Assembly: GCA_963718875.1 (NCBI GenBank)
Contig: OY970378.1
Span: 754,433-818,432 of the forward strand
Reading direction: 5' to 3'
Source: Candidatus Parcubacteria bacterium
Lineage (GTDB): Bacteria; Patescibacteriota; Saccharimonadia; UBA4664; JBIOIQ01
Length of the DNA stretch: 64,000 nucleotides
Shown: piece after piece, positions 4,049 through 45,512 of the stretch
How positions within the stretch are numbered: the first letter of the stretch is position 1
Layout: each line of letters opens with the position of its first letter
The notes under the pieces: generated by a model
Databases searched by the model: none
Seen by the model: only the letters and a program-made list of their open reading frames with translations
What the model was told of the DNA's origin: nothing
Translations under genes and position numbers: made by a program

Positions 4049-4816
4049 CTACATGCCGACCGCGTGAAAACCGCCATCGGCGTGGATGATCTCACCAGTT
4101 GTGGCGGGGAGCCAGTCTGACAACAGAGCCACACAGGTTCTAGCGACCGACTTGGGGTCTTTGGCGTCCCAGCCTAGAGGAGCTCGAGCATCCCAGGGTT
4201 CGGCGATAGCGTCGAAGCCGGCAATGGATCTGGCGGCTACTGTCTTGAGCGGTCCTGCCGAAACCAGGTTGACCCTGACGCTGTACTGACCCAAGTCACG
4301 AGCGAGGTAGCGGGCAGTAGATTCCAGCGCTGCCTTTGCCACACCCATCCAGTTGTAGGACGGCCATGCTTGGCTGGCGTCAAAGTCAAGCCCAACAATG
4401 GAGCCGCCACCTTTCATCAACAGCAAAAGAGTTTCGGCTAGCGCTTTGAGAGAGAAAGCTGACGTCTGGACGGCCACGGACACGTCAGGCCATGGCGCAG
4501 CTAGAAAATCGCCTCCGATACAGGATGCCGGGCCATAGGCGATGGCGTGGAGCACTCCGTCTAAGTGGTCCCAGCGATTACCAAGGTCAGTAGCCAATGA
4601 GGCTAAGTGTTCCAAATCATTAACATCCACCTCCAGCACATCGGGGACGGGAAACAATCTACTGGCTGTTCGTCTGGTCACGCTCATGGCTCGACCGAAG
4701 CTGGTCAAGACTATTTCGGCGCCTTCACCCTGAGCCACCTTGGCCACTTCGTACGCAATCGAGTCGGAGTTAAGGACTCCCGTTATCAACAACCGCTTGC
4801 CATCCAGCAGCCCCAT
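4049..4816 (-). CDS. fabI: enoyl-ACP reductase, NADH-dependent (FabI/InhA type); high-GC island gene
   Basis: SDR-fold enoyl reductase signature (GKRLLITGV...SIAY, Y..K catalytic region, DGGFHA C-terminal motif as in InhA). Visibly GC-rich codons. Confidence 0.8.
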   Translation of the reverse strand: MGLLDGKRLLITGVLNSDSIAYEVAKVAQGEGAEIVLTSFGRAMSVTRRTASRLFPVPDVLEVDVNDLEHLASLATDLGNRWDHLDGVLHAIAYGPASCIGGDFLAAPWPDVSVAVQTSAFSLKALAETLLLLMKGGGSIVGLDFDASQAWPSYNWMGVAKAALESTARYLARDLGQYSVRVNLVSAGPLKTVAARSIAGFDAIAEPWDARAPLGWDAKDPKSVARTCVALLSDWLPATTGEIIHADGGFHAVGM

Positions 4817-4965
4817 TGGGGTCTCCTTTGATCGTTCTTAGGGACGGGTCAAGTAATAACACACTTTGATTGAAAATTACAGCATAAGTGGAGCGGTGTT
4901 AGAATTAAAACGCGTGAGCGCCTCCCGTACTGGCAAGATGCTCAGCGCGGAAGGCGCGTCGGGGA

Positions 4966-19119: not shown

Positions 19120-19498
19120 TTTCGGTCCCCCTTAGGGATCGGTGCTACTCGGTTGGGATGGTACTCGCAAAAGCTGTATGAGGCTGGTTTGACCTCACAA
19201 AAAACGCCAATATATTTTACTGCTTTTGGGCGTTTGTGTCAAAAATAATTGTTTGTGAATCTTGAAACCCCTTAAACTTTTTGTCATCCTCCGACTTGAT
19301 CGGAGGATCTCGGCTAGATTCCCTACCCGGAGCGCCAAGCCAGGTAATAGTTGGGCTTGGCTTTCCGATAGGGAATGACACAAAATGGTGTGTTGATAAT
19401 TGCATTTGCCCTGTCTGCCGAGCCACTTTGAGAGTGACCCGGCAGACAGCATTGGACGATGGACTTCACTACTTGGTTTGCTTGGACTGATGAGGGGG

Positions 19499-20494
19499 CT
19501 AGCGAGGAGTAACCGCCCGGCGGATGTTACCCACCAAGTCTCCGGCCACCATCTCCGCCGCTAGGCCAACGGCGTTGAAGATAGCACGGCTCGATGCAGA
19601 GCCGTGGCTGATGATGCAGACCCCGTCGACGCCCAACAGAGCGGCGCCGCCGTAGGTGTCGGGGTCAAGCTCAGCTTGCAGAGGCAGGAGAGCCGGCAAC
19701 AGGACCTTGGTGGCCTCGCGAGCCTCCTCAGTTGATGTCATCGCTCGGAGAAGGGCGTCAACAACCACCCGAACGGACCCTTCGAGGGTCTTGAGGACGA
19801 CGTTGCCGGTGAATCCGTCGGTAACCACCACATCGGCCGCGTCAGTCAGGACGTCACGGCCTTCCACGTTGCCTATGAAGCGGCCTACCGATAGGGCGCC
19901 TGCCTCAGCCAGCAGGGCATGCGCCCCTTTGACCAGTTCGTTGCCCTTGCTTTTCTCCTCTCCGATGGAAAGGAGCCCAACGGTCGGCTCGTCCTTGCCC
20001 AGACGCAAAACGGCGTAGGCCGCCCCCATCTGAGCAAACTGCAACAGCCAGGGCGGCGTGCACTCGGCGTTGGCTCCACTGTCGAGGAGGACAGTGGGAC
20101 TGGAGCCGGGTACGGGGAGCATTGTAGCGATAGCCGGACGGGCAACGCCGGCGATGCGACCCATGCGAAGCAAGGCACTAGCCATAGCCGCACCGGTATT
20201 TCCGGCACTCACCATGGCACTGGCTCGCCCGTCGCGTACCGCTTCGGCTGCTCGCACCATACTGGCGTCCTTCTTGCGTCGGACTCCCTGCATGGCATCG
20301 TCACCCATTTCGATGACCTCGCTCGCGGGCCAACATTCGAGATCACCGGTGTGGAGTTCTTGCAATACTTCGGCTTGACCAACCAGAACCACGGGGACGC
20401 CGAACCGCTCTGCGGCCTCGCGGGCACCTGCCACAATCTCTCCGGGGCCTTTGTCACCCCCCATCACGTCTACTGCAATCGGTAGCTCTGGCAT
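19499..20494 (-). CDS. plsX: phosphate acyltransferase PlsX; high-GC island gene
   Basis: PlsX signatures (IAVDVMGGD..., GNTGA, DGFTGNVVLK, ISHGSAS); GC-rich codon usage. Confidence 0.85.
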   Translation of the reverse strand: MPELPIAVDVMGGDKGPGEIVAGAREAAERFGVPVVLVGQAEVLQELHTGDLECWPASEVIEMGDDAMQGVRRKKDASMVRAAEAVRDGRASAMVSAGNTGAAMASALLRMGRIAGVARPAIATMLPVPGSSPTVLLDSGANAECTPPWLLQFAQMGAAYAVLRLGKDEPTVGLLSIGEEKSKGNELVKGAHALLAEAGALSVGRFIGNVEGRDVLTDAADVVVTDGFTGNVVLKTLEGSVRVVVDALLRAMTSTEEAREATKVLLPALLPLQAELDPDTYGGAALLGVDGVCIISHGSASSRAIFNAVGLAAEMVAGDLVGNIRRAVTPR

Positions 20495-20610
20495 TTTCTG
20501 CTCCTTCCGTAGAGCATCGTCGGGACAACAAAAAGGCGCTCACTTTTGATGTGCGCTCACCTTGCGCACAATAATAGCATATGTAAAGGGAAAAACGAAC
20601 TTGATTAAGC

Positions 20611-20650
20611 GATCCTGAAACGACCGTCAGTTGACGGTTCAGGATGACAA
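20611..20650. repeat. 40-bp palindromic repeat element, copy A (GATCCTGAAACGACCGTCAGTTGACGGTTCAGGATGACAA)
   Basis: 39/40 identical to the copy at 39647-39686. Internal palindrome ACCGTCA-GT-TGACGGT. Ends in GGATGACAA, the reverse complement of TTGTCATCC at 19281-19289. Confidence 0.6.
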
Positions 20651-23564: not shown

Positions 23565-23733
23565 ATGTATACTGTTTATGCTCTCCGAAGCCAAGTAAGA
23601 GACTACATATATGTGGGTTTTTCGAATAAATTTAGCCACAGAGTCCATCAACACAACTCTGGCCAATCCAAAGCTACTAGACCTTTTCGTCCTTACACTG
23701 TAATTTATAGCAAGGACTTCCGTCTCGAATAAA
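23565..23733 (+). pseudogene. GIY-YIG nuclease family (UPF0213-like) gene fragment, apparently truncated or frameshifted
   Basis: My translation: MYTVYALRSQVRDYIYVGFSNKFSHRVHQHNSGQSKATRPFRPYTVIYSKDFRLE-stop. GIY...YIG core present, but the C-terminal half continues in another frame (NAREFEKYLKSGVGRQYLRSFET). Confidence 0.4.
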
Positions 23734-23802: not shown

Positions 23803-23888
23803 GGGCGAGTGGTGAAATGGTATACACGCTAGATTCAGGTTCTAGTGAGCGCAAGCTCGTGGAGGTTCGACTCCTCTCTCGCCCACCA
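23803..23888 (+). tRNA. tRNA-Leu (anticodon CAG), long variable arm
   Basis: Same acceptor/D-arm as the tRNA at 3878; anticodon stem CTAGA/TCTAG with loop TTCAGGT; T-arm GGAGG-TTCGACT-CCTCT; CCA encoded. Confidence 0.7.
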
Positions 23889-24942: not shown

Positions 24943-24962
24943 TTTAAGGGATTTTGAAGCAA

Positions 24963-24990
24963 TTGTCAGCTGACTGTTTTAGGATGACAA
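24963..24990. repeat. degenerate third copy of the 40-bp palindromic element
   Basis: TTGTCAGCTGACTGTTTTAGGATGACAA vs consensus CGTCAGTTGACGGTTCAGGATGACAA. It keeps the GTCAG..CTGAC palindrome and the GGATGACAA terminus. Confidence 0.3.
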
Positions 24991-25806: not shown

Positions 25807-25873
25807 TGGCTTGTATTATAGGGCAAGACACTAGATACAAGAAGCAAGACCAGCTAAAAATCTGGTTAGTTTT

Positions 25874-25907
25874 CGGATCCGGAGTGGCTAAAGCCTTTTG
25901 GTCCTGG
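25874..25907. repeat. 34-bp junction motif shared (inverted, 30/34 identical) with 39596-39629
   Basis: CGGATCCGGAGTGGCTAAAGCCTTTTGGTCCTGG vs the reverse complement of the 39.6 kb copy CGGATCCGGAGCGGCTAAAGCCTTCCGGTCCGGG. Confidence 0.5.
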
Positions 25908-25970
25908 ACGACAAAGTGATGAAGGGCGGTCGCTTGCGAGCGACCGCCCTTCCGGAGCAGATCCGACAGG

Positions 25971-29011: not shown

Positions 29012-29418
29012 TGTAGCACGCTAAGGCGGGAGATTGAAGTCAGACTTTAGTATTGGTGGGGTGTTGTGCTAGATTTGAAGTCTGACTTCCTGATAACCTC
29101 GAGGGTTGACAGTTGATGGATCCCCTATCCGGAGCATCCAATTTGTCAAAACTGGTGACTACAATGGCCTTCCGATATGGGATAACGGGATTTTTCTGCG
29201 ATGGATTGGATCGACTCAGTGTTAAACGTCAGCAGCTAAAAGTTAAGCGTTTCTCGTGTGTCAAATGTCAGACATTAGCGGTCAAAAGTTGCTTTAGCGT
29301 TTGTGTATCAGACGGCTGAGACTAAAAACGCTCTTTCCACTCACCCGCATCCGCTTCTTGCGTTTACGGTCGCGCGTTTCAGCACGTCTTAACGCGCGTA
29401 AAACTTGTTGACGACTGC

Positions 29419-30891
29419 TCATCTGAGGTGCTCCTTAACGACTTGGGCTTTGGCGGGTCCAACTACATCAACCAGGGCGTTAAAATCAGCCGTCTTCAGC
29501 CCTTGGACACTGCCAAAGACTTTGATTAGTTTTTTGCGGGTAGCTGGACCTACCCCTGGAACTGAGTCCAGAATAGAACTAGTTTGACGGTGACCTTTTA
29601 AAAGGCTATGGTACGTTACAGCAAAACGATGAGCTTCGTCGCGTACTCGCTGCAAGAGCTGTAAAACATGTGAAGACTTAGGGAGTAAAATGACTTCGAA
29701 GTCATTATTTGACATAATCCAAGCTTCGTTATCCCAATGACCGCTTGATGCTTGACTTGTACTTTCAGAGCGCCGAATAATTTCCTCTTCGCGCTTGGCA
29801 AGCCCGATAGTGGGAATGTTAATTCCCCGCTCTTCCAAAACCCCCAAAGCAGCAGCCAACTGACCTTTGCCCCCGTCAATCAAGATGAGGTCTGGCTTGG
29901 CCCATTGCTCGAGGTTTTTACTACTGAAGCGCCGCTCTATAACTTCACGCATATGGGCAAAATCATCATTACCGACCAGCCGCATTTTGAAACGGCGATA
30001 CTCATCTCGGTTGGGTACACCGTCATTAAATACCACCATACTGGCCACGTTATCAGTCCCTTGCATGTGCGAAATGTCGTAGGCCTCAATTCGACGCGGA
30101 AGGCCTTTTAACTGCAATCTTTCGCTTAAGCCCACTAAGGCCTGATCTAACGTGAGGTCAAATAGCTCTTTGTCGCCAAAAATCATTTGCTTAGATAGGG
30201 ATTGTAAATCGCGCAACTGGTCGCGAGATTTACTGGCAGCTTCAAAGTCTTGGCGCTTAGCAGCCCGCTCCATATCGCGCTGTATTTGTTGTAAAAGCTT
30301 GTTTTTGTCGCCACGGATGTACATTTCCAGCTGTTTTATTTGCCTCCGGTAGTCGACTGGTGTAATGGCATTTTCTTCGGGGTTAGGGCATAGCCCTAGA
30401 TGAGCCTGTAAACAAGCTCGCTGTGGCAGTGGGTCGTGTGTGACATAAGGGAAAATGCGCCGCAAGTACTTCATGGCCCGCTTCATGGCATCAGCCGAGG
30501 TAAAGGGGCCAAAATAAGTCGCTTTGTCGTCTAGTGGGCGGCGAACATACGAAACCACCGGATAGACTTGAGTGCCAACCTTTATATAATTCCAGTGCTT
30601 GTCGTCCTTGAGGTCTACATTGTATTTGGGCCGGTAGCGCTTAATCATTTCGCTTTCAAGAAACAAGGCTTCAACCTCGCTCCCCACTACCATCCAGTCG
30701 GTGTCGGCAATCTCCTGGATCAAAAGAACGGTTTTGAGATCACGGTTTTTGGTGTTTTGAAAGTATGAGCCAACTCGATTTTTAAGTATTGCAGCTTTAC
30801 CTACGTAAATGATTTTTCCCACCGTGTCCTTATGGAAGTATACGCCCGGTTCAGAAGGGAGGTTTTTTAATTTTTCTTTAAGCGTGGTCAT
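29419..30891 (-). CDS. uvrC: excinuclease ABC subunit C
   Basis: N-terminal GIY-YIG (PGVYFHKD...IYVGKA), UvrBC-interaction region, RNaseH-like endonuclease and C-terminal HhH (VPGVGPATRKKL). Start placed at MTTLKEKL rather than the upstream alternative start. Confidence 0.85.
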   Translation of the reverse strand: MTTLKEKLKNLPSEPGVYFHKDTVGKIIYVGKAAILKNRVGSYFQNTKNRDLKTVLLIQEIADTDWMVVGSEVEALFLESEMIKRYRPKYNVDLKDDKHWNYIKVGTQVYPVVSYVRRPLDDKATYFGPFTSADAMKRAMKYLRRIFPYVTHDPLPQRACLQAHLGLCPNPEENAITPVDYRRQIKQLEMYIRGDKNKLLQQIQRDMERAAKRQDFEAASKSRDQLRDLQSLSKQMIFGDKELFDLTLDQALVGLSERLQLKGLPRRIEAYDISHMQGTDNVASMVVFNDGVPNRDEYRRFKMRLVGNDDFAHMREVIERRFSSKNLEQWAKPDLILIDGGKGQLAAALGVLEERGINIPTIGLAKREEEIIRRSESTSQASSGHWDNEAWIMSNNDFEVILLPKSSHVLQLLQRVRDEAHRFAVTYHSLLKGHRQTSSILDSVPGVGPATRKKLIKVFGSVQGLKTADFNALVDVVGPAKAQVVKEHLR

Positions 30892-32514: not shown

Positions 32515-33560
32515 CTGCAATCCTGAGTTTCCTGAATTCACCCCTCAATCAGGACAGTCTCTCGTAAAACTCCTTTCTCTTTAGCCATTTCAATAGCGGA
32601 CATATATCCCAGGATCTTCCTGGGTTTGTTGTTTATGATCGTAATGATACGCTGCAATTCTTTGTTCGTCACGGTGGCTAGATCCATGCCTTTGGGCAAG
32701 TAGTGCCGAATCATTCGGTTGGCGTTTTCCACCCCTCCTTTTTGCCAGCTAGAATAGGGGTCACAGAAAAAAACGAGCATATCGAGCAATCTGTGCCAAC
32801 GGTTCTCGATACCGTTGTCGAGAGTCAGACTGCTGATGAGAGCAAGACCAGTTTGGAAGAGCTGATGGCTCCATTAAAGCTCACCGGACACAAGTCTGGG
32901 ATGGGTCTAGCAGCAATCAGTCTGGTGACTCGTTCCTGAATCACTACGATTGCTGCTTTTGATCCAGTCCGCTTGCCGCTAACGATGGTATCCCCCTCAT
33001 AGTGGCCCACTTCGCTCCGGACGGTAGCTTCATGGGGGCGCTCTGTAATACTCACCCGATCTGGAATCATCACCCGATCGGTCTTTGGTTTGCGCTTCTT
33101 TGGTCTGTACCTACGGGAGGGCAGGTAGTCACAGTACTTCTGCCCTCTGGCGCTGTCGAGCCATTCGTAGATGGCTGTCTTAGAGGCATAGTAACCGTGC
33201 TGATCTTTTTTTAGTCGTCCCGCTATCTCATCGGGATTCCAGCCATCCATGAGGCGCACAATGATGTACCAGCGCAAATCATCATTCTCCTGGATCTTCT
33301 TGCCCTGGTACTTGGCATACTTGCGTTTGACGTAGGCTTTTTGTTTGGCGATGCGGGCATTGTAGCCTTCCGGGGTCTTATTACGCTTCACCTCATCACT
33401 GATGGTATTGGGGCTCCGGCCCAAAGCCCGACCAATGGCCCTAAGAGTGTGACCTTTATTTAAAAGAATTTCTATTTCCGAACGCTCTGCCGATGTTAGT
33501 TTAGTAGCTTTTACCATGATGACACTCTACGGGTTGACTGTCCTGATTCAAAACGGAATG
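32515..33560 (-). mobile_element. IS30-family insertion sequence (transposase frameshifted)
   Basis: Terminal inverted repeats: CTCAATCAGGACAGTCTC at the left end vs the reverse complement of the right end TGAATCAGGACAGTCAAC. Element about 1.05 kb, within the IS30 size range. Confidence 0.65.
32538..33517 (-). pseudogene. IS30-family DDE transposase split into two ORFs (32825..33517 N-terminal HTH/DDE part; 32538..32789 C-terminal part)
   Basis: N-terminal ORF MVKATKLTSAERSEIEILLNKGHTLRAIGRALGRSPNTISDEVKRN (IS30 HTH). C-terminal ORF ...YSSWQKGGVENANRMIRHYLPKG (IS30 DDE C-terminal signature). The two ORFs are out of frame. Confidence 0.7.
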
Positions 33561-33635
33561 GAGGTATATAGCTCAGCGCCCCTCGACATTTTGCTACTTT
33601 CATCTATCCGTCCTGCCAACCCAAGGAGCATTTCC

Positions 33636-34184
33636 GTGACTGTGACCCAGACCCGCCCTGCCCCCCTCACCGAGGACGAGGAGCGGCTCATTGCAAAGCT
33701 CATCACCAACCCGCGAGTGCCCAGCCGAGACGTGGCTCGCCTCCAATTGGACGACCTCGAGGTTGTCCGCCGTACCCTGTTCTTCGTCACCCGCGACCTG
33801 GCTACCCAGCCCCCCACGCTGCATCCCGTCATCGTGGTACAGCCGAAGCAGGTGCAGACGCTCCCCGCCAACCTGGAAGAGCTTGAGAGGCTGGTCCACG
33901 ACCTCTACTCGAAGCTGGAAGAGTTGAAGGCCATCGTGCCGCAGATTCTCGCCGGCCGGATCGACACCTGCCTCTCGAACGCCGTTGAGGCCTACGGAGA
34001 CACGCAGCGTTTGTTGAGGTGGATCGACAGGGCCAAGGACCTGATCAAGCTGATCGAGTCCAACCCGATGTTCCGATCGACCACGCCTCCGGCTGTCGAT
34101 CTCGACGCACTCAAGGCTCGCGACGCCAAGCTGAGTACCACCCCCAAGAAGCCCCGTTTCAAGAAGGGCAAGAAGCAGAAGTAG
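33636..34184 (+). CDS. hypothetical protein, high-GC island gene abutting the IS30
   Basis: AAGGAG RBS + GTG start at 33636; GC-rich; C-terminal Lys-rich tail. Many spurious antisense ORFs overlap it. Confidence 0.4.
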   Translation: MTVTQTRPAPLTEDEERLIAKLITNPRVPSRDVARLQLDDLEVVRRTLFFVTRDLATQPPTLHPVIVVQPKQVQTLPANLEELERLVHDLYSKLEELKAIVPQILAGRIDTCLSNAVEAYGDTQRLLRWIDRAKDLIKLIESNPMFRSTTPPAVDLDALKARDAKLSTTPKKPRFKKGKKQK

Positions 34185-34188
34185 CAAC

Positions 34189-34713
34189 ATGTTCGAGCGT
34201 CCCGGCCGGTGCCCCACGTGGGTGCCGGTCGGGCCTCCGACCCAACGTCTGAAGTCACTTGAGGCTTTAGGTCGAGGTTCAATTGACAGCTGCAAATATC
34301 AGCGATATGGTTTGAGACGTCCACCGCACATCCCACAAGGAGGTAGTACATACGATAACCAGCTGCTAATAAGTCCGGAGGATGTAATCGGCTGGAGCAA
34401 CGAGTTTGAATATCGCTCGCTTCAGCTGTTCGTCTCCGTCCAAGGTGTCACGCATTTCATTGGTAGTGTCGGCCCATGCGCCCAGCGTTGCGGCATTTGC
34501 CGAGACACCCACTACTACGCCAAGAATTGCAACGGGTTGCCAGTTAAACCCGATAACGGCTACGGCTTCAATTCGGGAAGAAGTGCCGTCGTGGCTCTGC
34601 TCGAACAAAGCCGGTTCTACGCCCACAAAGGCAGATGGCTAAACCAAAGCCAATGGGATCGGCTGCAGCGCAAGCTACCTCACCAGCAGCCTAAGCGTTG
34701 GTACTCGCTGTAA
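34189..34713 (+). CDS. hypothetical Cys-containing protein (coding status uncertain)
   Basis: 174-aa track ORF of mixed composition; no convincing start/RBS identified. Confidence 0.25.
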   Translation: MFERPGRCPTWVPVGPPTQRLKSLEALGRGSIDSCKYQRYGLRRPPHIPQGGSTYDNQLLISPEDVIGWSNEFEYRSLQLFVSVQGVTHFIGSVGPCAQRCGICRDTHYYAKNCNGLPVKPDNGYGFNSGRSAVVALLEQSRFYAHKGRWLNQSQWDRLQRKLPHQQPKRWYSL

Positions 34714-37874: not shown

Positions 37875-37965
37875 TTTCCTCCTATTTCTCACCAACGTAA
37901 CAGAAAAAAATTATACGCTGTTTTGAGACGCGTGGCAATGCGCTAGAAGGCTTAAAGACACTACA

Positions 37966-38005
37966 GGAAGTCCGACTTCCCTACCCGAGAGGAAGTCGGA
38001 CTTCC
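37966..38005. promoter_or_regulatory. two copies of the 15-bp palindrome GGAAGTCCGACTTCC, 10 bp apart, about 90-130 bp upstream of uvrA
   Basis: Read directly: GGAAGTCCGACTTCC-CTACCCGAGA-GGAAGTCCGACTTCC. Confidence 0.35.
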
Positions 38006-38112
38006 TGGGGGTATAAAACGAAATGCCCCTCCCAGGCATCTCGAGGTGAGTGCCTGAAGACTAAGGCCCGGTTCGACAACGATGTCGAACCGGGCCTTTT
38101 TATCCCCATGCT

Positions 38113-38625
38113 TCAGCCGAGCAGCTTGTGGATCACCCGGGCCGCTTCTTGACGCTTGACCACTAGAACGATCGCGAAGACTGCAACGACAAGGACGAGG
38201 ATAAAGATGGTCACTCTAGCTGGAGTATGCGAGATCAACCCCCAGGCGATAGTGCTGTAAATGATGGGCCACCAGACGGCACGCATCAGCTCAAAAGATC
38301 CAGAGAGGGCGTCGGCGACCCAGACACCTAGAATCAGCACCACGCCGAACCAAATCCAGAGGTCACCGGCGACCATCATGCCGATGAGCGGGCTGACAAG
38401 GAGTACGCGGTCAGACTGACCGTCAAGGTGGTAGCCAAACTCAGTTGCAACTCCCCACCTTTTGGCCAGGAAGCCATCGAGAAGATCACTTCCGAATCCG
38501 CCCACAACGAGCCAGATGGCGGCGGAGGTCCAGTGGTTTTCGATAATGAGAGTGTAGACATAAACCGCCATCAACAGCCGAAGCGCGCTAATGACATTGA
38601 CCGTGATGAGCTTGAAAGTTCTCAT
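38113..38625 (-). CDS. CDP-alcohol phosphatidyltransferase family protein; high-GC island gene
   Basis: D-G-x2-A-R...G-x3-D-x3-D motif (DGFLAKRWGVATEFGYHLDGQSDRV) in a multi-TM protein; GC-rich. Confidence 0.7.
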   Translation of the reverse strand: MRTFKLITVNVISALRLLMAVYVYTLIIENHWTSAAIWLVVGGFGSDLLDGFLAKRWGVATEFGYHLDGQSDRVLLVSPLIGMMVAGDLWIWFGVVLILGVWVADALSGSFELMRAVWWPIIYSTIAWGLISHTPARVTIFILVLVVAVFAIVLVVKRQEAARVIHKLLG

Positions 38626-38777
38626 GTCTTTTCTCCTGCTCGAGCTTTGGGATGTGCGAAGGGTGTTTATAATAACATACTTTCACGTAAAATACAATGT
38701 TTTACTGTCTGAAGAGGCAAAGAGCCCGGGTCGACGTCATTGTCGACTTGCGGGCTCTGTTGTTTTTCGCCTGTTCC

Positions 38778-39500
38778 CTACTTGGATCGGACCTTGCTCT
38801 TACCAGTCCGGTAGTTGTACTCGATATGGTCTCCAGTCTTGGTCATGGGGGCGATGGTGTCGAGGACTACCATCGAGACGAAGCCGGCGAAGCCGATGGC
38901 GAAGGTCAACGTGACCAACGTACTTCGTTGCGTGACCAGAAGCGGCACAAGTGCCGAGAGCATCCAGTAGGCCACAATGGCGAAGATGAAGGTGTGCCAG
39001 AGCTTGGAGGGGCTGAGCTCCTGCGCCATGGTGTAGTAGCCGCACTTGACCGGGGACAGCTCCATGAGCAGCGATAGGCCGAAGCCGAACGCTAGGAGGG
39101 TAAGGTGCCACCAGCGCTGGGTGTACCACCCGTTGGAGGGTGTCCAGGCCCGCAGAGCGTACCCCATCCCAATGAGGATCATTGGGATGAAGAGGGTGTC
39201 GTTGAAGCGGAAGGTCCAGTAGCGCGGAATCGTGGGGTCTCCCTCGACGAGGCGCCTGATCACGAGGATGGCCACGAAGTCGGCCAAGATCATGATGGCC
39301 GCGGCGGCGAATGGTCCCCACGGACGGGCGACCCAGCGGTAGATGTCGAGTGCTGGCAGAATGCCGGCGGAACGTGACTTGCCAGTGGCGGGCTTGGAGG
39401 CGGCGAGGAGCATCAGCTCCAGCGCTACAAACACGAAGAGCAGATAGATAGCAGTCCGACGGGGCATGACTCCTCCAGAGGGAGTAGTAGGGATATTCAA
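38778..39500 (-). CDS. polytopic membrane protein, hypothetical; high-GC island gene
   Basis: 240-aa hydrophobic ORF. The alternative frame 38800..39564 is Arg-rich and typical of an off-frame in GC-rich DNA. Confidence 0.5.
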   Translation of the reverse strand: MNIPTTPSGGVMPRRTAIYLLFVFVALELMLLAASKPATGKSRSAGILPALDIYRWVARPWGPFAAAAIMILADFVAILVIRRLVEGDPTIPRYWTFRFNDTLFIPMILIGMGYALRAWTPSNGWYTQRWWHLTLLAFGFGLSLLMELSPVKCGYYTMAQELSPSKLWHTFIFAIVAYWMLSALVPLLVTQRSTLVTLTFAIGFAGFVSMVVLDTIAPMTKTGDHIEYNYRTGKSKVRSK

Positions 39501-39586
39501 CTGTCAACAAAGTGCGAGAAACTATATTATAATAGCATACTTTCACGATAAATGCAAGGTCCAACGCTTGAACTCAATAACCTAAC

Positions 39587-39686
39587 TTGTCATCCCGGAC
39601 CGGAAGGCTTTAGCCGCTCCGGATCCGGGATCCACCAACTGTCGTGGATCCTGAAACGACCGTCAGTTGACGGTTCAGTATGACAA
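39587..39686. repeat. composite repeat element B: TTGTCATCC - 34-bp motif (inverted copy of 25874-25907) - 40-bp palindromic element - GTATGACAA
   Basis: Starts with CTTGTCATCC and ends with TATGACAA (inverted termini). Contains GATCCTGAAACGACCGTCAGTTGACGGTTCAGTATGACAA, 39/40 identical to copy A at 20611. Confidence 0.55.
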
Positions 39687-45342: not shown

Positions 45343-45512
45343 ACTCTCAAGTATACCTCATCGATGTCTGACATCTCTGACCTAGACACATGTCAGACAT
45401 CCTCAACTGAGCTGATGCTTGCTTTGCCGAACAAAGCAGGGTTGGCTCAAGCCTTTTGGCCGGAAGCTGAACATTTGGTCTGGATGGGACGTTCGCTTCC
45501 TGTTTGCTAAGA

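Follow-up and report, generated by a model that had tools for sequence, protein, structure and literature searches.

Extragenic hairpin repeats in a Saccharimonadia chromosome and the 100-bp composite element that two of them form

The locus studied here raises the question of what the highly palindromic element of about 100 bp between a 153-aa gene and the next promoter is, and why parts of it recur near GC-rich genes elsewhere. It lies in the window, by which we mean the whole 64,000-nucleotide stretch of DNA that was analysed. The window is placed in Saccharimonadia (TM7/CPR) by its UvrA, to which the best species representative is 80% identical, and its compositional outliers include a FabI-like reductase, PlsX, a Clp_N protein, a 113-aa ORF and a CDP-alcohol phosphatidyltransferase. 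The initial annotation had read the element as part of a repeat vocabulary common to high-GC islands, and considered it compatible with a lipid-regulon operator imported with the genes or with recombination sites.

The composite element and its relatives in the window

Our reading of the sequence bore out the element at 39587-39686, beginning with TTGTCATCC at 39587 and ending with GTATGACAA at 39686, although the starting sequence quoted in the initial annotation, CTTGTCATCC, is offset by one base, its leading C being position 39586. The two modules described earlier were also recovered as reported: the 40-nt module at 39647-39686 is 39/40 identical to 20611-20650 (blastn-short E = 2e-15), and the 34-nt module at 39594-39627 is 30/34 identical to the reverse complement of 25874-25907, a match that can be extended to 41 nt at 88% (36/41; 39587-39627 against 25874-25914, inverted; E = 2e-6). 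Both 40-nt copies contain the perfect palindrome ACCGTCA-GT-TGACGGT. The match is well beyond chance and real.

The element is a doublet, in which unit a (plus strand, type A) and unit b (minus strand, type C) stand in inverted orientation with their tails outward and, between them, a 12-nt spacer in which their GGATCC inner ends pair. Its termini form a 17-nt imperfect inverted repeat, TTGTCATMCYGRACCG, with 13/17 positions agreeing (TTGTCATCCCGGACCGG against the reverse complement TTGTCATACTGAACCGT). The RNA fold of a 121-nt stretch reaches -51.9 kcal/mol on the plus strand (z = -6.1 against dinucleotide shuffles) and -59.2 kcal/mol on the minus strand (z = -7.0), and consists of three hairpins and a closing terminal stem made by the terminal inverted repeat. 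The doublet begins 8 nt past the stop codon of the 153-aa gene and ends 28 nt before the -35 box of the next promoter, and it occurs once at full length in the 64-kb window. No target-site duplication was found at its flanks, AATAACCTAAC on the left and TTGACAAATTAG on the right, or at the other units.

The doublet belongs to a family of six units, all intergenic and all located between 19 and 40 kb of this 64-kb section of a 1.19-Mb genome. They have a common frame, namely a 5' tail TTGTC, a hairpin with the stem ATCC...GGAT, and then C; the tail is unpaired and invariant in 6/6 units, the unit size is about 32-48 nt, and the hairpin interior is one of at least three types (A, C and E). The units, the spacer and one further fragment are as follows.

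39587-39634, plus strand: unit a, type A (nhmmer E = 2e-7), the left half of the composite, with tail TTGTC, outer stem ATCCCGGA/TCCGGGAT and inner hairpin CCGGA-AGGCTTTAGCCGC-TCCGG
39629-39652, no strand: spacer hairpin B, GGATCCAC-CAACTGTC-GTGGATCC, whose arms are the GGATCC inner ends of a and b
39645-39686, minus strand: unit b, type C (E = 8e-9), the right half of the composite, TTGTCATACTGAACCGTCAACTGACGGTCGTTTCAGGATC on the minus strand, with one stem mismatch relative to unit c
20609-20650, minus strand: unit c, type C (E = 1e-9), TTGTCATCC + hairpin + GGATC, between the divergent plsX and tRNA-Cys promoters
25870-25914, minus strand: unit d, degraded type A (E = 1e-6), TTGTCGTCC...GGATC, between the GC-rich terminator of the 113-aa gene and the xth promoter
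19281-19312, plus strand: unit e, type E (E = 2e-3), TTGTC + ATCCTCCGA-CTTGA-TCGGAGGAT + C, between plsX and the Clp_N gene
24950-24990, minus strand: unit f, decayed and AT-richer type C (E = 6e-6), TTGTCATCCTAAAACAGTCAGCTGACAATTGCTTCAAAATC, between the convergent APH-like gene and xth, with no adjacent high-GC gene
29108-29150 (match 29108-29135), minus strand: fragment g, 25/28 identical to 39616-39643 (the junction of unit a and spacer B), between a 42-aa ORF and a holin-like gene, with no adjacent high-GC gene

The copies at 19281-19312 (plus strand) and 24950-24990 (minus strand) and the fragment at 29108-29135 had been missed by the initial annotation. A profile built from the six units retrieves those alone in the window (E from 1e-9 to 2e-3), the next match having E = 4. 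The exact 9-mer TTGTCATCC/GGATGACAA occurs four times, always in intergenic DNA and beside a hairpin, against an expectation of about 0.5 for the window as a whole and about 0.1 for its intergenic part. Likewise, all six intergenic TTGTC[AG]T sites are units, whereas none of the 18 sites of this kind in coding sequences has a hairpin. The outer stems differ in sequence and are nevertheless still paired (ATCCCGGA/TCCGGGAT, ATCCTGAA/TTCAGGAT and ATCCTCCGA/TCGGAGGAT), indicating that the hairpin structure is conserved and not one sequence; units a, b, c and e form hairpins of 9-15 bp under both DNA and RNA parameters. The copies are of different ages, with identities of 39/40, 36/41 and roughly 70%, the last judged by eye. 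Five of the six sites lie at most 200 nt downstream of a stop codon.

Three GGATCC (BamHI) sites within 26 nt, including CCGGATCCGG, might suggest an assembly, vector or linker artefact, which the initial annotation had named as a way in which its reading could fail. The evidence makes this explanation close to negligible. The element had no blastn match in plasmids or phages, diverged copies lie at several loci, and the 11 GGATCC sites observed in the window compare with 13.5 expected; neither GATC nor GGATCC is avoided or enriched. Moreover, the flanking genes are carried by two independent Logan contigs (ERR12037361), whose ends overlap inside the element, at 39616-39649 as estimated from gene coordinates. 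Because these contigs break inside it, the element behaves as a repeat in (de Bruijn) assembly graphs.

The units and the neighbouring high-GC genes

If the units had come with the GC-rich genes, they should be found at the donor loci, and plsX, which lies beside two of them, allows this comparison. The gene and its predicted promoter are located as follows.

19499-20494, minus strand: plsX, whose product is 88-91% identical in amino acid sequence to PlsX of Acidimicrobiales/Actinomycetota MAGs
20571-20599, minus strand: predicted plsX promoter, TGC-TATTAT extended -10 with a weak -35 box TTCGTT

Judged from these identities, plsX is a genuine import. At the nucleotide level it is 76-78% identical to the donor contigs (L119, L122 and L123), and this homology is limited to the coding sequence, at 19495-20487. 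The donor gene order is rpmF-plsX-acpP-rnc, and neither a unit nor such a palindrome was found at the donor plsX loci or in their upstream DNA. The promoter DNA in front of plsX in the window is AT-rich, of native type and outside the donor-homologous block, with unit c beyond it. As the homology covers the coding sequence only, the donor upstream DNA lacks the module and native-type promoter DNA precedes unit c, the units are not donor DNA; by this comparison they are native to the Saccharibacterium and not co-imported with the high-GC genes. The more interesting biology beside this finding is that of the single lipid-gene coding sequences, the host-type plsX among them, that stand behind native-type promoters in a Saccharibacterium.

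The same comparison bears on the proposed operator, according to which the 40-nt module is bound by a dimeric transcription factor at ACCGTCAGTTGACGGT, regulating plsX and the 229-aa gene next to the doublet as parts of a phospholipid regulon imported with the genes. The perfect 7-2-7 palindrome does occur twice, each time upstream of a minus-strand gene of which one is plsX, and there are other lipid-related high-GC genes, for the FabI-like protein and the CDP-alcohol phosphatidyltransferase. However, the latter two have no module copy, the module is absent from the donor loci and the collections scanned, and no regulator was found nearby. The conservation extends over 40 nt, including the tail that units with other hairpins also have, rather than over a protein-sized core of 16 bp, and the palindrome sits inside a 34-nt hairpin with an asymmetric bulge. 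The copies begin 12 nt (unit c, plsX) and 88 nt (unit b, 229-aa gene) upstream of the -35 boxes, which gives no common operator geometry; for an operator of the FapR, FadR or FasR type, conservation limited to the palindrome and a fixed position relative to the promoter would be expected, unlike what is seen here. The earlier statement that both 40-nt copies lie upstream of minus-strand genes was correct, but only plsX could be recognised as a phospholipid gene: the 229-aa gene has no Pfam match and no recognisable lipid function, and no such site is present at the orthologous promoter of the closest relative found. With donor homology confined to the coding sequence, donor upstream DNA without the palindrome and a variable distance to the -35 box, the imported operator is not supported as an explanation. 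We consider this operator role very improbable, and the palindrome should be annotated neither as a lipid-regulon operator nor as donor-derived DNA.

The closest relative found (L124; UvrA 85-88% and UvrB 85% identical) also clarifies the other flank of the doublet.

38778-39467, minus strand: 229-aa membrane-protein gene, with GC3 = 0.83 against mostly about 0.45 in other genes
39529-39559, minus strand: promoter of the 229-aa gene, TTGCAT-N17-TATTAT, orthologous to the L124 promoter and outside the repeat

In L124 an ortholog of the 229-aa gene, with the same promoter and terminator, lies directly upstream of uvrA. The promoter common to L124 and the window reads TTGCAy-TTATmGTrAAArTATGs-TATTATAA; homology between the two ends at the -35 box, beyond which an unrelated GC-rich hairpin occupies the doublet's place in L124. 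The gene, its promoter and its terminator are thus syntenic, with 54% amino acid identity between the proteins, and the gene may have been replaced by a GC-rich allele rather than newly inserted. Its start is likely the ATG at 39467 and not the TTG at 39500. A 34-nt promoter module (TTGyAT-N17-TATTAT with GTGAAAGTATG spacer) occurs upstream of both the CDP-OH_P_transf and the 229-aa genes, at 38667-38700 and 39527-39560, the two copies being 85% identical; the copy at 39.5 kb is the one orthologous to the L124 promoter. The promoter core AAGTnTGnTATTA is present exactly three times in the window, also at 4854-4866, and each time upstream of a high-GC gene. The FabI-like gene at 4049-4816 and the CDP-OH_P_transf gene at 38113-38625 are high in GC as well.

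We then considered how closely the units are tied to such genes. Four of the five unit sites border a high-GC gene, compared with 16/49 intergenic regions overall (hypergeometric p = 0.034), and the value becomes p = 0.08 once fragment g is counted. Two of these four sites flank one and the same gene. The link is therefore suggestive (p about 0.03-0.08). That the repeats are shared among the islands was confirmed, with 4 of 5-6 sites adjoining high-GC genes, but the expectation that every occurrence abuts a compositional island failed within the 64-kb window, where unit f (24950-24990) and fragment g (29108-29135) do not.

This association is one argument for regarding the units as the ends of a non-autonomous, cargo-carrying element, or as recombination sites for gene acquisition. 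The 100-bp doublet would then be an 'empty' form and the 1,370-bp segment 19281-20650, comprising unit e, plsX with its promoter and unit c, a 'loaded' form. Units e and c bracket plsX, a demonstrable import, in inverted orientation and with their exact 9-nt TTGTCATCC tails outward, the same geometry as in the doublet, and CCCTT is found 12-13 nt outside the tails of units c, d and e. However, a tails-out pair of neighbours arises by chance with a probability of about 1/4 per pair among six units, donor homology stops about 120-190 nt inside the e-c bracket with native-type promoter DNA in between, and the target duplication is absent. Units are missing near five other high-GC genes, sites f and g adjoin no gene of that kind, and the 229-aa gene beside the doublet, being syntenic in the relative, is not a novel insertion. 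A scan of 30 ORFs of the window for recombinases, transposases and regulators returned only an HTH_38 protein. We regard cargo ends or acquisition sites as decidedly unlikely. More specifically, the TTGTCATCC-tailed units would act as trans-mobilised cargo ends or recombination hot spots through which an epibiotic Saccharibacterium installs single Actinomycetota genes, such as the Acidimicrobiales-type plsX; we give this mechanism an even smaller chance. The recombination-site alternative offered earlier survives in a weaker form, as mobile or recombinogenic repeats.

Some further features of the window were noted. The minus-strand region 32825-34626 encodes the HTH_38 protein, which has 230 aa, an IS30-type domain and no transposase core, and adjoins two high-GC ORFs without a Pfam match (33600-34295 and 34366-34626); together with these neighbouring ORFs it may be a degraded mobile element. 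A 334-aa neighbour has two distant homologues only. Directly downstream of uvrC lies a very basic 42-aa ORF (29294-29422, minus strand), probably a genuine small gene, which is conserved in another relative (L001:10584-10709; tblastx 67% over 42 aa). Just upstream of tRNA-Leu (23803-23888), a 55-aa ORF (23565-23732, plus strand) encodes a GIY-YIG nuclease domain.

Function and spread of the repeats

The strong predicted folding on both strands raises the possibility that the hairpins are functional RNA, such as 3'-UTR stabilisers, terminators, insulators or a small RNA, and are kept by selection and not by mobility. Most units are just downstream of genes, the doublet fits between a stop codon and the next -35 box, and a different strong hairpin occupies the same position in L124. 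However, transcription is not expected across unit c, which lies between two divergent promoters, the orientation of the units relative to the upstream gene is inconsistent, and a canonical scan for intrinsic terminators flagged none of them, no U-tract following the stems. Identity of 39/40 across tail and hairpin also exceeds what a terminator needs. At gathering thresholds Rfam returned only tRNAs for the whole window, and the element itself had no match even at E <= 10. A primarily RNA-level function is accordingly unlikely.

We conclude, with a probability of roughly 0.6, that the units are a lineage-specific family of short interspersed extragenic palindromes, REP/BIME- or MITE-like, in a Saccharimonadia (TM7) chromosome. 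This is built on established properties: the existence of the family, its frame and structure, its intergenic-only location, the differing ages of its copies, and its absence from donor DNA and relatives. A trans-acting enzyme or gene conversion would spread or homogenise the repeats within the genome; they would settle between genes, mostly just past the 3' ends of these, and decay afterwards. Once in place, they might affect transcripts as 3'-end hairpins that stabilise or terminate them. Against this explanation counts the position of four of the five sites beside high-GC genes, which a purely selfish repeat does not predict. Further points against it are the missing target-site duplication, the single full-length doublet in the window, and the lack both of the GTAG signature and of a transposase that belongs to the family.

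The searches beyond the window agree with a lineage-specific family. No unit was found in 10 related Saccharibacteria loci or in L124. The core of module C (GAAACGACCGTCANNTGACGGTTC) had 0 matches in 185,579 GTDB species-representative genomes and 0 in JGI metagenomes, and the core of module A had 0 in JGI metagenomes and IMG/VR. The bare 16-mer palindrome gave 38 matches in IMG/VR, which we take to be chance matches, as the flanks that were checked were unrelated. Readings of the units as dif/Xer sites, DnaA boxes, parS, DNA uptake sequences, tRNA fragments or attC sites were rejected, no matching core sequences being seen by eye.

A candidate for REP-like biology, although not for the enzyme acting on these units, is found in the closest relative. 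L124:2937-3662, beside uvrB, carries a gene for a 209-aa Y1_Tnp protein, which scores above the Pfam Y1_Tnp threshold and has the REP-associated tyrosine transposase model as its best NCBIfam match (51 bits; curated cut-off 80). It is flanked by two hairpins, ATAGAAGTCTGAC...GTCAGACTTCTAT. The window retains an orthologous hairpin with a compensatory change at 45362-45405 and, at 45415-45435, a remnant consisting of the first seven codons of the RAYT-like gene (MLALPNK). Hairpins of the same type as those flanking the L124 gene, with arms AAGTCnGACTT or ATGTCnGACAT, form a second family in the window (29036-29093, 37964-38007 and 45362-45405), the first of them 14 nt from fragment g. Comparison of the TTGTC family with the RAYT-flanking hairpins gave no significant similarity, a single 11-mer being marginal after multiple testing. 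Thus, REP-like biology in the lineage is plausible, but the RAYT-like gene is flanked by the other hairpin family and does not supply the enzyme for the TTGTC units, with which no transposase could be linked.

Small dispersed palindromic repeats are commonplace in many bacteria. For Saccharibacteria and other CPR bacteria, with their reduced genomes, a full-text literature search on extragenic palindromes yielded no report of them. Should the family prove abundant throughout the genome, it could serve as a handle for strain typing, would be a known cause of assembly breaks, as in the Logan contigs, and might point to a REP-type transposase that is active, or was lost recently, in a CPR lineage.

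Comparison with known repeat and cassette systems

Among the systems that handle single genes, integron attC sites resemble the units as structured imperfect palindromes (60-140 nt) beside foreign-looking single genes, with structure conserved above sequence. The left flank ACCTAAC fits R'' (RYYYAAC), but there is no R' GTTRRRY at the right end, no integrase in the ORFs scanned and no cassette array, and the genes here, unlike attC cassettes, have their own promoters. Mobile insertion cassettes (MICs) contain passenger genes between IS-type inverted repeats and are mobilised in trans. The arrangement of plsX with its promoter between two units whose identical 9-nt tails point outward is similar, whereas signs of mobility and a target duplication are absent, the two flanking hairpins differ, and the other imported genes are not bracketed.

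A second group consists of small non-coding elements. With MITEs such as the Correia/NEMIS elements of Neisseria and with the modular BOX elements of Streptococcus pneumoniae the doublet has in common a length of about 100 bp, terminal inverted repeats, a highly structured transcript (predicted here) and a place between a stop codon and the next promoter. It is also modular, like boxA-B-C, with modules that are found alone. Unlike these elements, it has no target-site duplication, its imperfect terminal repeat measures no more than about 9-17 nt, the 64 kb hold just one full-length copy, and no cognate DDE transposase was found in the 30 ORFs scanned.

REP, REPIN and BIME elements are repeats of Proteobacteria that are mobilised by RAYTs (REP-associated tyrosine transposases) and number tens to hundreds of copies per genome; six units were read here in 64 kb of the 1,189,924-bp chromosome. 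There are differences: the tail is TTGTC and the classical GTAG is absent, the doublet joins units with different interiors and does not form one long hairpin as a REPIN does, the hairpins beside the relative's RAYT-like gene belong to another family, and the host is a CPR bacterium. The similarities are nevertheless extensive. The units are about 35-45 nt long, with an imperfect palindrome that follows a short, conserved 5' tail of single-stranded DNA, they are strictly extragenic and often just 3' of genes, and several hairpin types coexist with copies of different ages. The nearest relative found has a RAYT-like gene that survives as a remnant in the window, and the inverted pair with a short linker corresponds to the arrangement of BIME-1 (Y-REP, linker, Z-REP).
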